Assembly: GCA_031274525.1 (NCBI GenBank)
Contig: JAISQA010000077.1
Span: 1,194 to 65,193 of the forward strand
Length of the DNA: 64,000 bases
Origin: Candidatus Margulisiibacteriota bacterium
GTDB lineage: Bacteria > Margulisbacteria > Termititenacia > Termititenacales > Termititenacaceae
Direction: 5' to 3'
Shown: positions 8,008 through 15,478 of the stretch, piece by piece
How positions within the stretch are numbered: position 1 is the first letter of the stretch
Layout of the letters: the number at the start of each line of letters is the position of its first letter
Translations under genes and position numbers: made by a program
The notes under the pieces: generated by a model
What the model saw: only the letters and a program-made list of their open reading frames with translations
The model's database searches: none
Told to the model about the DNA's origin: nothing

Positions 8008-8069
8008 AAGACTAAAGATTATAGTTGATTTATGCTAAAATTCAAAAATCAAATTGGAGGGCGCATAAG

Positions 8070-8678
8070 ATGAAAAAATTCCGGGTGGTTTTCCTGAGCG
8101 CAGTCTGTCTGTCGCTGGCTTTTGCGGATGTTGTGCTGCCCCCGCCGGTCAAAAGCGACGGGCCTGGCCTCTGGACTCTGCTGGAGCGGCGGGCTTCCGG
8201 CACGCGCAATGCTTTTCCCGCCGGCGCGGTGTCCGATGCAGAGCTGGCTTCTATATTATGGGCGGCGACCGGCCGCAACCGCGGCGGACAGGGCTGGACA
8301 GTGCCGGTGGGTATGGGACGTCCTCCGCATGTCAAAGTGTACGCCGTGAAAAACAACGGCGCCTACCTCTATGACTGGCAGAAGCATGCGCTGGTCGAGG
8401 TAAATAATAAGAACGTAAAAGCGGAAGTGACCGCGGATGATTTTGTCCGGAATTCTTCCGTTATTCTGGTGTTCGTGGCGGATACCGCCGCTAACCAGCG
8501 GGCGGAAATGGATAATATTCTGGCCGGGGCGATGAGCCAGAATGTGTATCTGGCGGCGGACGCGCTGGGCATCAAGACCCGTTATCTGATGACGCTCAAT
8601 GCCGCCGGGATACGGCAGGGATTGAAACTAAATAAAACAGACACGCCCTTATGTATTATGCCGCTGGGAAAAAAATAG
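8070..8678 (+). CDS. nitroreductase-family protein (SagB-type-like) with predicted N-terminal signal peptide
   Basis: GGAGG Shine-Dalgarno 10 nt before the ATG at 8070. MKKFRVVFLSAVCLSLAFA looks like a signal peptide. The core has nitroreductase-fold motifs (RRASGTRNAF...ASILWAATG). Confidence 0.55.
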   Translation: MKKFRVVFLSAVCLSLAFADVVLPPPVKSDGPGLWTLLERRASGTRNAFPAGAVSDAELASILWAATGRNRGGQGWTVPVGMGRPPHVKVYAVKNNGAYLYDWQKHALVEVNNKNVKAEVTADDFVRNSSVILVFVADTAANQRAEMDNILAGAMSQNVYLAADALGIKTRYLMTLNAAGIRQGLKLNKTDTPLCIMPLGKK

Positions 8679-8906
8679 AATAACAGAATTATCCGGCTCG
8701 CGCTACCTGAGGGGGAAATTCTTATCTACAAAACTTAAACTATGCTCCCCGCTTTCGTCCAAGAAGTAATAATATTTCATTTACATATCATAACTTAATG
8801 AGTTAGTTAGACAATTAAGCCGCTTGTTCCCGCCTAAAAAAATGGGCTGATTGTCCGGAATCTTCGATAAACTAAGTGAACGGGGTTAAGCGAGAGGGTT
8901 GTTTTT

Positions 8907-11900
8907 GTGCAGAGGAAACAGATTGCTATTGTAGATTTGCTGCAAAAAGCCGCGCGCTTTCTGGCCAATCCGTTTGAGGAGGCGGTGAATTTTGCCGGGC
9001 TGCTGCGGCTGGATATTCCGGCGGCGGACAAGAGAGCTATTCTGGGCTTGAGCCTGAAATATAAGCAGTATGTGGAAACGCCTAAACAGACGGCGGGGCC
9101 GACGCAGTTAGCGCCGCGGCTGACGGAGCAGGAAAAAGAGGCCTATTATTTAGCTAATAAACAGCGCCAAACTGCGGCGGAAACCGCGCGGTACCGGAAG
9201 CTGCTGCGGGAAATTGCCCCGCTGCATGACCCGCTCCAGTATCTGGCTAAAGCGCAGGCCGCGGACTTTTCCGGTCTGGACGAATACGGCGCGGCGCTGG
9301 TGCGGCAGTTGATAGCATCCCGGCAGGCCATAGCGGCGCTGGATCAAAAACAAACCCGGAAGCAGGCTATAGTTTTTGTCTTTAGCGTGTACCGGGATAT
9401 TAACCGGCTGAAGAGGCCGACAGAAACTTTTACCGGAGAAAATTTTCTGGAAGTGAAGTGCCGGCAGCTGGCTTATCTTTTCCATGACATGCGCTATTTT
9501 GACTGGCGGCTTCTGATCGCGGAGGATGAAGCCTGCGCGGAGCCGGACAAAAGCACCGTCGAGGCGATCAACCGCCTGCTGGACAATCCCTTTCACTTGA
9601 GCCGTTTTGCTCCTAAAGTGCAGACATTTTTTCCGGAGGATTTGCTGCCGGAGCTGGAGCAGTATCAGAAACGTTCCGGAATTTTTAAGAGTATTTTTGA
9701 CGCGGCTGAGCCCCGGGAGCGGGCCAGACTTTTCACCGAAGCCAGTCATAAAGGCGGCATGATCCATTTGCTTTTGCGCAAAGCTCTGACTTACCGGCCG
9801 GCAGCCGTTGTTTATACGGACAGCGACACTTCGCATGATCTGGGGGTCAGCGGTTTGCTGCTAAAGGAATTGTACTCCGGCCGGGCCGACGCGGTGATCG
9901 CTTCCCGGCGTGTCCCCGGCGCGGTGGTAGCCAATAAATCCAGAGAACGCGAGCTTTATTCCGCCGGTTATCACCTGCTGGCGGAAACTTTATTTGGTCT
10001 GGGTATTAAAGACACGCAGTCCGGTTTAAAGGCGCTGCGCCCGCAGGCTGTGGAGACGGTACAGTCCCGGCTAACGGAGCTGGGCATGAGTTTTGAGGTA
10101 GAGCTACTGAAGCTGCTGAAAAAAGACGGCTGGACGATCGAAGAAATACCGGCAGTCTGGCGGGACTCCCCCTATGAATCCAAATCGTCCGATCAGGCAC
10201 AGGCGATGGCCGCAGGCCTGCTGCGTGTTTATAGAGAAATTTACCGCCCGGAGACAACGGCTGAATTGCCGGTTGATTTGCCGGCGCGGCTGCAGGCCGA
10301 GCCGGAATATCCGGCCCTGCGCCGGCTGGCGGAAGATCCGGAATTGACCGCTTTTACCAGAAACAGCTTCCGGTTATTTTCCGCGGTGCAGGTGAAAGAC
10401 TTCCGGGATTTTCTGCGGCAGGCCCAGCTGTTCATTGAGCGGCTGGCCTACAATCACGACGCGATCACGCAGGCCAGTCTGGAAGAGCTGCTGGCCGCGG
10501 GACGCCGCTGTTTCGCTATTTTACGCCGGCGCAAATTGTTCGGTTTTCTGGCCGGTAATTATCCTGACCTGGGGCCGGTGCTGGAATTACTCCGCAAAGA
10601 CCGTAAATATCTGAAAATTATTTTTCCCCTGTTTTTTGGCCGCAATATTATCAGCGCTTTGCTGGGCGTGGACGGCGCGGCAGCGCTACAGCGGAAGGAA
10701 ACCCTGTCCGGCTGGCTGGCTCATTATGCGGCGGATATTCAGGCCGTCCGCAGCTTCAAACCGGCGCCGCTGGTCAGGCAGGAATATACTCCCCGCCAGT
10801 TAGAGCGCATAGCCGCTGCGGCGCTTTCCCTGCGGAATACCCTGCCCGGACGGGAGAGACCGCTCCAGATCGGGCTGGCGCTTTTGCATAATCGTAAAAT
10901 AGATAAAACCGCGCTGGAGATCCTGCGCACGCAGGTGCAGGATCTGAGCCGTTACATTCAAGATCTGCCCCAGCTACAGTTTGAGCTGCTCATCGCCGGC
11001 GCCGATAAACACCGGCTGACCCCGGCCGAGGAGCAGAGCCATCTAAAAAGCCTGAACACAGCGCAGATCCGGGTGTCTTATCTGCCGGTCAGCGACGATT
11101 TTGAAAAAGGCAAATTTATCCGTTATACCTGGAATGTGCTGGACCACCAGCGTACCCTATCCGCCACGGAACGGGGTAACGCACAGTATTATGCTCCGGA
11201 TCTGCTGGCTTTTATGGATTATTCTTACAAGATCAGCATTCTGGAAACGCTGCCCATGCTGGCCTGGGTTATGGAAAATTACCGCAATCCCGAAGACGCG
11301 GTGCTCATCGGCTCCCGCCGGCTGGACTTGAGTGAAGTTCTGCATAAATCGCAGGCGCTGGAACTGCGCAGCATGGCCCTGAATATACTGGTCAAAAGTT
11401 TATTTCCCAAACTGCACGGCGTGGAGGACACCCAGACCGGCCTGAAAATAGTCGGGCGGAATGTCTGGCATAGAGTGGATGCAACACCATGGTCGGCTGA
11501 CGGCTACGGCTGGGAAATAGAGCTGCTCAACAAAATAGCGGTCATTTATGACCGGGATAAAGAATTTAAGGAACGGGTGGACAGGCTGGCGGCCCTGCCG
11601 GCCAAACATGAAAAGTTGCTCAAGAAGCTGCTGAACGAATCATTCTGGACAGCGGAAAATCCCGGCAGGGCTGGCCGGGACGCGCTGGCGCAGAGCGTAG
11701 CGCGGTATAAAAAAATTATCCGGGATTTGCAGAAAGAAACTTTCTGGACAACGCAGAATAATATGCCCGCGGTGGATGCGCTGCTGGGCCAGCTGTATTC
11801 GGCCGCGCAGGACTACGACCGCATTATTCAAGAGCTGCTCGAGGCGCTTGACCCGGCAGTCCACGGGCCGGCCCTCAACGATTTGTTTCAGGAAACCTCC

Positions 11901-14618
11901 TGGGCCGCGGAAACCTGGTACCTGATCGCCAAAATAAAAAATAACAGCGCTTTACCGGAAGTCATCAAAGAAATGCCGGTGGCTTTTGATGACAATACCA
12001 GCCAGCTGAATATTACCTCCAGCGAGCAAGTGATCTGGAATGTGCTGGAGGAAATGCTCAAAATTCTGGCGCAGACCGCGGATTATACCTACTATGACCG
12101 GAGTAATGAACTGCGCTTTATCGCCGGCGGAGCCGACGGCATGGTGTTTGAGTACCGGAACAAAGTGGTCAAAATACCTAACGAAAACTTTGATGTGGAT
12201 TTTTATGATGTGCTGAAGAATCTGCTCCTGCCCGGCCAAAAAATCATGCAGCGGCACGAATACGCTCAGCGTTTGGTCGAACATACGCTGATCGATAAAC
12301 TGACGGCTCAGCCGGCGCTGGACAGATTGATCCCGCATCTGCGCGCCTGGCCGGAAGCCAATAGTTTTATTCTGCGGCTGATTGCTCTGCTGGAAAATAA
12401 AGATTTTAAATCTTCCGGCTATCCGCTGGCTTTTGCCCGCGGACAGGGGTTGATCATTCCTATGTCCCGGCAGGAAGAACCTTTTCAGGCCGTTTATCGA
12501 GGCCGGACTTATCACTTTACCCGGGAAGATAATATTCTGGTCATGGCCAAGGCCGAAGTGCTGAGGAACAGACTGCGCGAGATTATTATTAAGAACGATC
12601 TGCCCGGCTTCCGATCCCTGCTCAAAGATGTGACGGATTTGATGCGCAGGCTGTGGAGGCGCGGTTTGTTCGATATGGACACCAATATTATCGCGGATCT
12701 GGGCTATTACAAAGGGAAGCTGTACCTGCTGGATCCCGGGGAGATTATCGACAATCCGGGTCTGGATATTTTGCAACATTCAAAAGAATATCTTACCCGC
12801 CGCACAGACTACATAGAATTGCGCGGCCTGCTGTCCGGGACTGCGCAGGCCAAAATAATGCTGGGGGAATACCGCAGTCAGATGTACGGCTTGTTCGATT
12901 ATATGCTTGCCGATCTGGAACAGGGCGGCAAGTATTTTAATTCAGATAAGGGTGATTTTCACCTGCAAAATGTAGCCATTATTCAGGAGGAATATACTCC
13001 GGTTACGGATTACCGCGGAATTAAACAGCATTATCTGTTTCTCTCCAGAGCCGGAGTGAATAAAAGATACACGCCTTTTCGGGAGCATCTGCCCCTGATC
13101 AAGGCTCAGCCGCTGGCGGACATCGCGTATCTTTCCAATCCCGGCGACGCGCAGGTGAAGCAGGTTCTGGATTATGAGGCTCTGCAAAAACCCTTTAAAG
13201 GAAATGTTTTGTACGCGGAGCGGGGCGGCCAGGGCTTTCGGGCAGGTTTATTGAGCCTGGCTGCCGGCGGCAAAGAATATATTGCTTTCAACGGCAGGCC
13301 GTTGATCAAATGGGTCATGGGCAGCAATGCGGCGCTGGTCAGAGAGCTGCACAGTCCCGACACGGCGGATCCGCTGCTGATTATCGCTTCTATAGATAAT
13401 TATATGGATTACCGTCAGGAAGATATTGACCGCATAAATCAGTATTTTGCCCTGCCGGAAGCGCCGGGCGCCTTTTTTTATGATCTGCCGGCTTACAGCC
13501 ACGCCGAAAGAATGCCGGAGACTCTGGGCGCAATGGCGCATTATTTCAAGACCTCGAAAGTTTTTTGGCGGGATTATAGATATTTCATAGACAGCATTCC
13601 TTTTATAGCCGGTTTTGCCCGGCGTAAAAATAATCTGTCCGAGACCATCTTAAAAGCCGCTCTGACTAACTGGCGGGCTTTTTATGGCTCCCCGGAGCAG
13701 GCCAGGCAGGACGGGGGGGGGGGGGGTATGCCTTTTGCCACCCAGACAGCGGCCCTGCTGAAACGTTTTATTTTGTATGCTTCCAATCAAAAAAGAGGCA
13801 TCAAAGCCCCGTACACGCTCATTTTCAGACAGTCTTTTCTCCAGGATTTACGGGAAAGCATCGGGCCTAAAATACCGGATTATGCCGGACACGAGCTTAC
13901 CTGGTTCAATCTGCTGTGCGCCTGGAAATATGATCCGGCCCTATGGAGCATGCTCAAGCCCCGGCTGCTGAGCGCCGCCGTCTGGCAGGATATTTATGAG
14001 ACGATGCGCAGGCTGGCCGTCAAACATCATATTGATCTGTCCGATCATCAGCAGAATAAGCTCCGGGTTTTTTACGGCGACTGGGCGGCTCTGGATAATC
14101 CTTTTTATGATATTGTGAAATTTTTCAAACGCAACAGCGCCAGGCTCGGAAACACGCCCATTTATGTGGAAAAAAGATTTTTGGCGCCGCGCAGCAGCGA
14201 AAATGAGCAGCGCCGGGAAAACCTGTTTACGCCCGCTTACTATGCCAGAATAATTGAAAATTGTGAAAACAATGATGTGGTTATTGTAGGCAATCCGGGA
14301 TACATTAAAGGCCGGATTAAAATTACGGCGCAGGATTTCCGTTTGCAGCAGTCCCAGCGCAAAACCCTCCTGTACGAAGTCAGCCTGCCGCCGGGCTATG
14401 TCATCGAGGTGCCGAAAAATCATATGCTGGTGCAGTTAACCGATCCGGATAAAACGCGCCATTATTATTCGATGACCCTGCGCCCGTTATCCCGCACGGA
14501 TCTCGCTAAAGAAATGGTTTACCGTTATGAGCTGGCGGAAAACAGCACTACCTATACGCCCCGGAAATACCAGCCCTACGAAGAATTTTTTAACGAACGC
14601 TTCCGGAGCCAGCGCTAA
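8907..14618 (+). CDS. giant (1903 aa) multidomain protein with two GT2 (GT-A fold) glycosyltransferase modules, a protein-kinase-like motif set and about 700 aa of unassigned C-terminal sequence
   Basis: GTG start with GAGAGGG Shine-Dalgarno. First GT2 module, around nt 9350-10200: IVFVFSVYRD..LLIAEDEACAEPDKST..VVYTDSDTSHD..IKDTQSGLKAL. Second, degenerate GT2 module, around nt 11000-11550: ends with VEDTQTGLKIV. Kinase-like motifs, around nt 12110-12750: Gly-loop-like IAGGADGMVFEYRNKVVKIP, later DMDTNIIADLGYY..LLDPGE resembling HxD..N/DFG. No transmembrane segment is evident. The recognisable motifs are on this strand, so the antisense ORFs in the track are rejected. Confidence 0.7.
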   Translation: MQRKQIAIVDLLQKAARFLANPFEEAVNFAGLLRLDIPAADKRAILGLSLKYKQYVETPKQTAGPTQLAPRLTEQEKEAYYLANKQRQTAAETARYRKLLREIAPLHDPLQYLAKAQAADFSGLDEYGAALVRQLIASRQAIAALDQKQTRKQAIVFVFSVYRDINRLKRPTETFTGENFLEVKCRQLAYLFHDMRYFDWRLLIAEDEACAEPDKSTVEAINRLLDNPFHLSRFAPKVQTFFPEDLLPELEQYQKRSGIFKSIFDAAEPRERARLFTEASHKGGMIHLLLRKALTYRPAAVVYTDSDTSHDLGVSGLLLKELYSGRADAVIASRRVPGAVVANKSRERELYSAGYHLLAETLFGLGIKDTQSGLKALRPQAVETVQSRLTELGMSFEVELLKLLKKDGWTIEEIPAVWRDSPYESKSSDQAQAMAAGLLRVYREIYRPETTAELPVDLPARLQAEPEYPALRRLAEDPELTAFTRNSFRLFSAVQVKDFRDFLRQAQLFIERLAYNHDAITQASLEELLAAGRRCFAILRRRKLFGFLAGNYPDLGPVLELLRKDRKYLKIIFPLFFGRNIISALLGVDGAAALQRKETLSGWLAHYAADIQAVRSFKPAPLVRQEYTPRQLERIAAAALSLRNTLPGRERPLQIGLALLHNRKIDKTALEILRTQVQDLSRYIQDLPQLQFELLIAGADKHRLTPAEEQSHLKSLNTAQIRVSYLPVSDDFEKGKFIRYTWNVLDHQRTLSATERGNAQYYAPDLLAFMDYSYKISILETLPMLAWVMENYRNPEDAVLIGSRRLDLSEVLHKSQALELRSMALNILVKSLFPKLHGVEDTQTGLKIVGRNVWHRVDATPWSADGYGWEIELLNKIAVIYDRDKEFKERVDRLAALPAKHEKLLKKLLNESFWTAENPGRAGRDALAQSVARYKKIIRDLQKETFWTTQNNMPAVDALLGQLYSAAQDYDRIIQELLEALDPAVHGPALNDLFQETSWAAETWYLIAKIKNNSALPEVIKEMPVAFDDNTSQLNITSSEQVIWNVLEEMLKILAQTADYTYYDRSNELRFIAGGADGMVFEYRNKVVKIPNENFDVDFYDVLKNLLLPGQKIMQRHEYAQRLVEHTLIDKLTAQPALDRLIPHLRAWPEANSFILRLIALLENKDFKSSGYPLAFARGQGLIIPMSRQEEPFQAVYRGRTYHFTREDNILVMAKAEVLRNRLREIIIKNDLPGFRSLLKDVTDLMRRLWRRGLFDMDTNIIADLGYYKGKLYLLDPGEIIDNPGLDILQHSKEYLTRRTDYIELRGLLSGTAQAKIMLGEYRSQMYGLFDYMLADLEQGGKYFNSDKGDFHLQNVAIIQEEYTPVTDYRGIKQHYLFLSRAGVNKRYTPFREHLPLIKAQPLADIAYLSNPGDAQVKQVLDYEALQKPFKGNVLYAERGGQGFRAGLLSLAAGGKEYIAFNGRPLIKWVMGSNAALVRELHSPDTADPLLIIASIDNYMDYRQEDIDRINQYFALPEAPGAFFYDLPAYSHAERMPETLGAMAHYFKTSKVFWRDYRYFIDSIPFIAGFARRKNNLSETILKAALTNWRAFYGSPEQARQDGGGGGMPFATQTAALLKRFILYASNQKRGIKAPYTLIFRQSFLQDLRESIGPKIPDYAGHELTWFNLLCAWKYDPALWSMLKPRLLSAAVWQDIYETMRRLAVKHHIDLSDHQQNKLRVFYGDWAALDNPFYDIVKFFKRNSARLGNTPIYVEKRFLAPRSSENEQRRENLFTPAYYARIIENCENNDVVIVGNPGYIKGRIKITAQDFRLQQSQRKTLLYEVSLPPGYVIEVPKNHMLVQLTDPDKTRHYYSMTLRPLSRTDLAKEMVYRYELAENSTTYTPRKYQPYEEFFNERFRSQR
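13713..13726 (+). repeat. G14 homopolymeric tract inside the giant CDS (encodes DGGGGGM)
   Basis: Direct count of 14 consecutive G at 13713-13726. It is in frame as sequenced. Confidence 0.9.
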
Positions 14619-14723: not shown

Positions 14724-14915
14724 ATGAAAACACTGGATTGTGCCTGCCCGAATACCGACTGCGCAGATCACGGCGAATGTTCGGCCTGCGTTGCCAAACA
14801 CAGAGCCGCAGACAGCCTGACTTATTGTTTTTTTCCGAACAATGACGGCGACAAAAGTTTAGAAAATTTTTATCATCATTTAGAAAAACGTTTTACAAAG
14901 GAGACCGCAGAATGA
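14724..14915 (+). CDS. small cysteine-rich protein (CxCPx3Cx2HGxCx2C motif; putative metal-binding 'zf-like' domain)
   Basis: MKTLDCACPNTDCADHGECSACVAKH.. with 63 aa from the internal ATG. Its stop TGA overlaps the efp ATG (ATGA), which implies translational coupling. The start is uncertain and the ORF extends upstream to 14637. Confidence 0.4.
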   Translation: MKTLDCACPNTDCADHGECSACVAKHRAADSLTYCFFPNNDGDKSLENFYHHLEKRFTKETAE

Positions 14916-15478
14916 AAGAAGCTATCGACTGCAAACCCGGGCAGATTATCAAAAAAGACGGACAGCTCTTTGTCGTGATGAGCTGGTACCCGCACAAAAT
15001 CGGCGACCGCGGCGGCATCGTGGTGGATATGAAGCTCAAAAATCTGGACACCGGAAATATTTCCATGGTGCAGCCCCGCTCTCAGGACAAATTTGACGAT
15101 GTGGTGCTGGAACGCAAACAGGTGCAGTATTCCTATCAAGACGGCGAGATGTACGTGTTTATGGACAGGGCAACCTTTGACCAGATCTCCATCAATAAAG
15201 ATTTGATCGGCGATAATTTAGGTTTTTTAAGAGAAAACATGGAGCTGGATATTTTTTTCCACGAAGGCCGGGCTGTCTCTGTCGTATTCCCGACTTTTGT
15301 CGAAATGGAGATCAGCTATACCGAGAATGTGGCGCGCGGCGACACCTCCGGCAAAGTGATGAAGAAGGCCCAGCTGGAAAACTCCGGCTACGAGATAGAC
15401 GTGCCCAGCTTTTGCAATATCGGCGACAAAATAAAGATCGACACGCGCACGCAGGAGTACGTCGAAAGAGTAAAATAA
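14912..15478 (+). CDS. efp: elongation factor P
   Basis: Full-length similarity to EF-P, including the conserved C-terminal RGDTSGKVMKKAQLENSG...IDTRTQEYVERVK. The loop sequence HKIGDRGG replaces the common KPGKG motif. Confidence 0.9.
   Translation: MKEAIDCKPGQIIKKDGQLFVVMSWYPHKIGDRGGIVVDMKLKNLDTGNISMVQPRSQDKFDDVVLERKQVQYSYQDGEMYVFMDRATFDQISINKDLIGDNLGFLRENMELDIFFHEGRAVSVVFPTFVEMEISYTENVARGDTSGKVMKKAQLENSGYEIDVPSFCNIGDKIKIDTRTQEYVERVK

Follow-up and report, generated by a model that had tools for sequence, protein, structure and literature searches.

A 1903-residue Margulisbacteria protein with two GT2 modules, a protein-kinase-like domain and a nucleotidyltransferase-like core: a possible single-chain glycosylation pathway

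The gene described here lies in a 64,000-nucleotide stretch of a Candidatus Margulisiibacteriota contig (the window) and encodes a protein of 1903 residues (Table 1). The reading frame given in a preliminary description of this DNA is confirmed, and its product is identical (100%) to the NCBI entry for hypothetical protein LBQ83_07220 from a Candidatus Margulisbacteria MAG. A second Margulisbacteria MAG carries an ortholog, also of 1903 aa and 66% identical. The protein has no transmembrane segment, as had been proposed, its Kyte-Doolittle 19-residue mean peaking at 1.53. The neighbours are likewise those described before, namely a nitroreductase-family gene upstream (8025-8678) and efp downstream (14912-15478), with a small DUF6485 ORF before efp. 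No terminator-like site was found, so that co-transcription with efp is possible in this one genome. A link to EF-P modification, for which this adjacency would speak, was rejected as a property of the family since efp adjoins no homolog. A search for conserved gene neighbours had been suggested, and there are none: no neighbour in the window recurs beside any homolog, and the gene is a stand-alone unit without a conserved neighbourhood. A role in anti-phage defence was rejected because PADLOC gave no match for the gene, and a viral origin because relatives are absent from IMG/VR. A defence island begins 1.3 kb downstream of the gene.

Table 1. Positions of the gene, its start signal and the modules of its product in the window
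Feature	Residues (aa)	Position (nt)	Strand	Remarks
Shine-Dalgarno-like GAGAGGG		8892..8898	+	8 nt before GTG start; read from sequence
Whole ORF		8907..14618	+	GTG start, 1903 aa plus stop
N-terminal helical module	1-145	8907..9341	+	predicted helical, low confidence
GT2a	146-450	9342..10256	+	DPM1/ALG5/GtrB/PpgS-like GT-A glycosyltransferase
Conserved helical linker	451-645	10257..10841	+	75% identical between the two Margulisbacteria proteins
GT2b	646-895	10842..11591	+	diverged paralog of GT2a
Helical insert	896-1040	11592..12026	+	three (E)(S/T)(F/S)W(T/A) repeats
Protein-kinase-like domain	1041-1345	12027..12941	+	G-loop GGADG 1074-1078
Spacer	1346-1419	12942..13163	+	poorly conserved
Sugar-1-phosphate nucleotidyltransferase-like (pyrophosphorylase) core	1420-1640	13164..13826	+	G1441-Q-G1443-F-R1445, K1456, D1497
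C-terminal module	1641-1903	13827..14615	+	helical part, then beta-rich end; high-confidence model

All the motifs on which the preliminary description had based two glycosyltransferase modules and a kinase-like region were found in place, beginning at residues 214 (DKST), 305 (DSD), 369 (DTQSGLK) and 841 (DTQTGLK) and at 1074 (GGADG), 1087 (VVK), 1256 (DMDTN) and 1275 (LDPG). They go beyond chance, since the GT2 modules align to each other and the same motif residues recur in about 24 distant full-length relatives. GT2a has a full set of catalytic motifs and, by sequence, falls in the DPM1/ALG5/GtrB/PpgS branch of polyprenyl-phosphate glycosyltransferases. It carries AEDE (205-208), KGG (282-284), the DxD motif as D305-S-D307, SRR (333-335), the Asp of D(T/S)Q.G(F/L)K as D369 in DTQSGLK (369-375), and (Y/G)ESK as Y423-E-S-K426, and relatives keep the pattern as TDxD, DTQxGxK and W.DS..ES.S. 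The DxD, SRR, D(T/S)Q.G(F/L)K and (Y/G)ESK motifs are common to DPM1/DPMS (5MLZ), ALG5, GtrB, AglJ, PpgS and the haloarchaeal dolichyl-phosphate hexose transferase, and these polyprenyl-phosphate enzymes are the sole source of significant sequence matches to the protein, all through GT2a.

The matches of the window protein itself are to NCBIfam AglJ (E 1e-3) and PpgS (E 0.015), with PF00535 (E 0.046; 14.1 bits against a cut-off of 23.3) and TIGR04182 (18.6 against 325) below threshold. The family profile matches Pyrococcus DPMS 5mlz at E 4e-5, and relatives match the dolichyl-phosphate hexose transferase model NF041391 at E 1e-9. PF00535 is matched in 4 of the 24 family members, and P0006, a relative linked to the window protein at E 4e-7, passes it with 30.8 bits. 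Unlike the polyprenyl-phosphate GT2 enzymes, whose curated cut-offs its scores fall far under, the protein has no transmembrane or obvious membrane-anchor helices, and its GT2a has an insertion of about 45 residues and forms one part of a 1903-aa multi-enzyme chain. A membrane anchor is usual in DPM1-type enzymes, and the lack of a transmembrane segment here is a point against the single-chain pathway proposed below.

The second GT2 module, which could have proved spurious, is real. GT2b aligns to GT2a with 36% identity over 86 aa (pairwise E 3e-8 in an internal BLASTP), and the profiles of the two modules cross-match in every relative. Judged from this similarity, GT2b is homologous to a GT2 catalytic domain and a paralog of GT2a. 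It keeps SRR (803-805) and DTQTGLK (841-847), in which the Asp at the catalytic position, D841, is shared by at least 90% of members. GT2b has no YESK motif, and D771-Y-S773, a conserved D-F-S in the family, stands where DxD is expected. The structure model of aa 1-1040 was built from a 6-sequence alignment and is poor overall (pLDDT 54), with core beta/alpha segments at pLDDT 70-90 and a beta/alpha pattern at aa 620-730 at 65-86; its Foldseek matches are all weak and of the GT-A/NTP-transferase class, with E values of at least 1.6e-3. The assignment of GT-A folds therefore leans mainly on sequence. KfoC/K4CP and PmHAS are likewise single polypeptides, soluble or peripheral, with a pair of GT-A/GT2 modules. 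They are not known to have a kinase or pyrophosphorylase, their modules belong to other GT2 branches, and no similarity to either was detected.

The kinase-like region is likewise more than chance. In the predicted structure, aa 1041-1345 take up a bilobal PKL fold, and a full catalytic set (G-loop, beta3 Lys, alphaC Glu, catalytic-loop Asp/Asn and DFG Asp) can be assigned, the domain carrying K1089, E1163, D1256-x-D1258-x-N1260, D1264 and D1276-P-G-E1279 besides the G-loop; the canonical positions follow from the order of secondary structure in the model rather than from residue-level superposition. Among 24 sequences, K1089, E1163 and D1276 are invariant, and G1075, D1256, D1258 and N1260 are kept in at least 90%. 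At D-x-D-x-N, the catalytic loop falls one residue short of the canonical D-x4-N. The predicted fold and the catalytic residues, with a DFG-like Asp, are shared with RIO/Bud32, AceK, glucosamine kinase 6HWJ, maltokinase and WbdD. The best structural neighbours include protein kinases (AceK, PAK4, RIO), which makes a protein substrate possible, and sugar kinases (glucosamine kinase, maltokinase), which score about level with them. No curated kinase model in Pfam or NCBIfam (Pkinase, APH, RIO1, Kdo and others) matched the window protein or 30 relatives.

The last 700 residues had been described as without a recognisable family. This holds at the sequence level, where the tail gave no Pfam match as part of the whole protein or in eight pieces, no NCBIfam match and, with single-sequence as well as profile queries, no PDB-sequence match, and PF00483, PF12804, PF01704 and PF07959 matched the core neither in the window protein nor in its relatives. 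It does not hold at the level of fold, as aa 1420-1640 are predicted to form a nucleotidyltransferase fold. G1441, R1445, K1456 and D1497 do not vary among 24 sequences, giving a G-x-G-x-R...K signature with an acidic residue downstream (family consensus LDAGxGxRxxLL...KG and S.DD), and hhalign places this signature on the G-loop of ManC (residues 2-23) in a match that is not significant. For the nucleotidyltransferase fold, the best non-kinase structural match is FKP, and the top matches in structure are enzymes of hexose-1-phosphate nucleotidyltransferase type rather than cytidylyltransferases. The C-terminal module, with conserved K(T/A)PF, ITW and W.NFDDP motifs, is always found with the core; the two also pair in the stand-alone proteins P0012, P0029 and P0037. 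A relationship of the tail to the UDPGP gene beside P0005, a stand-alone homolog of GT2a, was rejected, as neither BLASTP nor hhalign gave any similarity.

FKP, the L-fucokinase/GDP-fucose pyrophosphorylase of Bacteroides fragilis (PDB 9IIS/9IIT), sets a precedent for pairing a kinase and a pyrophosphorylase in a single polypeptide, and its Gly76, Ser78, Arg80 and Lys89, which bind the GTP phosphates (PMC11982464), are the equivalents of the G-x-G-x-R...K signature. Its kinase, however, is of the GHMP type and C-terminal to the pyrophosphorylase, whereas the one here is PKL-type and N-terminal; FKP has no glycosyltransferase modules, is about 11% identical to our protein and is linked to it by no sequence method. 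The protein falls outside the FKP family, though it may work in an FKP-like way.

For the protein as a whole, Pfam, NCBIfam and PDB-sequence searches gave just weak GT2 signals. It has about 40 relatives, mostly of 1700-2700 aa and with the same module order. All near-full-length relatives, from Legionella, Simkania, Rhabdochlamydiaceae, Rickettsiales, Coxiellales and Margulisbacteria, keep the order N-terminal module, GT2a, linker, GT2b, kinase, nucleotidyltransferase and C-terminal module, and the strongest conserved columns fall in all four catalytic modules. The profile of aa 1-145 recurs at the N-terminus in most relatives, and the helical insert is seen only in the two Margulisbacteria proteins. 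The architecture is a new variant assembled from known enzyme kinds; no description of it was found in the literature searched.

These comparisons establish the four folds or families, the conservation of catalytic residues and the strict module order across distant bacteria. As to function, we give about an even chance to a single-chain glycosylation pathway, in which kinase and nucleotidyltransferase make an NDP-sugar and the GT2 modules transfer the sugar. The kinase-like domain would phosphorylate a free sugar or a similar hydroxyl compound, the nucleotidyltransferase, with the C-terminal module, would join the sugar phosphate to an NTP, and both GT2 modules would pass the sugar of the resulting NDP-sugar onward. 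Since GT2a is of the complete DPM1/ALG5/GtrB/PpgS type, its acceptor would most likely be phosphate-bearing, for example polyprenyl phosphate, and GT2b, the diverged paralog, may add a second sugar or use a second acceptor. P0005, 45% identical to GT2a, directly adjoins a gene for a UDPGP-family UDP-sugar pyrophosphorylase, and this pairing is independent evidence, in "split" form, for the single-chain pathway. Points against the pathway are that kinase and nucleotidyltransferase escape all Pfam, NCBIfam and PDB-sequence models, that protein kinases are among the structural neighbours, that the catalytic loop is shortened, that GT2b lacks YESK and the second Asp of its DxD, and that the model of the N-terminal half is poor.

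Where the protein would act is a separate matter, and a translocated effector or toxin (T4SS, T3SS or another route) whose modules act on host molecules, for example by glycosylating host proteins or dolichyl phosphate or by phosphorylating host proteins, is a tentative alternative compatible with single-chain pathway chemistry. In 185,579 species genomes, relatives were found in Chlamydiota (Simkania, Rhabdochlamydiaceae and a Chlamydiia MAG), two "Verrucomicrobia" MAGs, Rickettsiales, two Legionella species, Coxiellales and two Gammaproteobacteria MAGs and nowhere else, a picture that is incomplete because the scan used two peptide patterns only, which weakens its weight for an effector. Relatives appear to be rare and almost all in bacteria living inside or on eukaryotic cells, which suggests that the family works where bacterium and eukaryotic host meet. 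One further member, also in keeping with an effector, comes from a foraminifer transcriptome. An effector role would also fit P0016, in which the core is joined to an OTU cysteine protease (deubiquitinase) domain (PF02338, E 5e-14) and whose neighbour genes carry TIR and RAP domains, the Glu-rich C-terminal extension of about 60 residues in the Legionella homologs, and the stand-alone gene. Against it, NCBIfam sees the Legionella and Simkania homologs as weak GT2 at most and as no effector family, and a host already provides NDP-sugars, so that an activation module would be useful only for an unusual sugar.

A more specific version, which we consider unlikely, is a translocated "self-sufficient glycosylation factory" that, inside a eukaryotic cell, would phosphorylate a host sugar, turn it into an NDP-sugar and pass the sugar to host dolichyl phosphate or proteins through the two DPM1-like GT2 modules, rewiring glycosylation at the ER-associated vacuole, in a family that horizontal transfer would have carried among Legionellales, Chlamydiota, Rickettsiales and symbiotic Margulisbacteria.

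The preliminary description had suggested that one polypeptide may both glycosylate and phosphorylate a substrate. This is partly borne out: kinase-like and GT2 modules do lie on one chain, but the kinase is paired with the nucleotidyltransferase, always directly N-terminal to it and apart from the GT modules, and the truncated or alternative architectures P0041, P0042 and L008 keep these two together. A kinase that phosphorylates the molecule glycosylated by the GT modules, a glycan product as with WbdD-, POMK- or Fam20B-like kinases or a protein, with the nucleotidyltransferase supplying the donor independently, therefore seems improbable; the near-equal scores of glucosamine kinase and maltokinase also speak against it. 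LicA/LicC-like activation of a non-sugar phospho-alcohol (choline, ethanolamine, glycerol or ribitol), with GT2-like modules in a different or non-catalytic role, is very improbable. The pairing of a protein-kinase-like kinase with an NTP-transferase-fold cytidylyltransferase in LicA/LicC and the degenerate DxD of GT2b favour it, but the tail best resembles hexose-1-phosphate nucleotidyltransferases, the Leloir motif set of GT2a is complete and conserved family-wide, and the stand-alone P0005 pairs with a UDP-sugar pyrophosphorylase.

If the single-chain pathway holds, the protein would be a natural one-polypeptide cascade from sugar through sugar-1-phosphate and NDP-sugar to glycoconjugate, of a kind that synthetic glycobiology now builds from separate enzymes. 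It belongs to a family of about 40 giant proteins in which neither Pfam nor NCBIfam detects the kinase and pyrophosphorylase domains. With its host-associated distribution and its OTU-fused member, this family could represent a new class of host-interaction factor.

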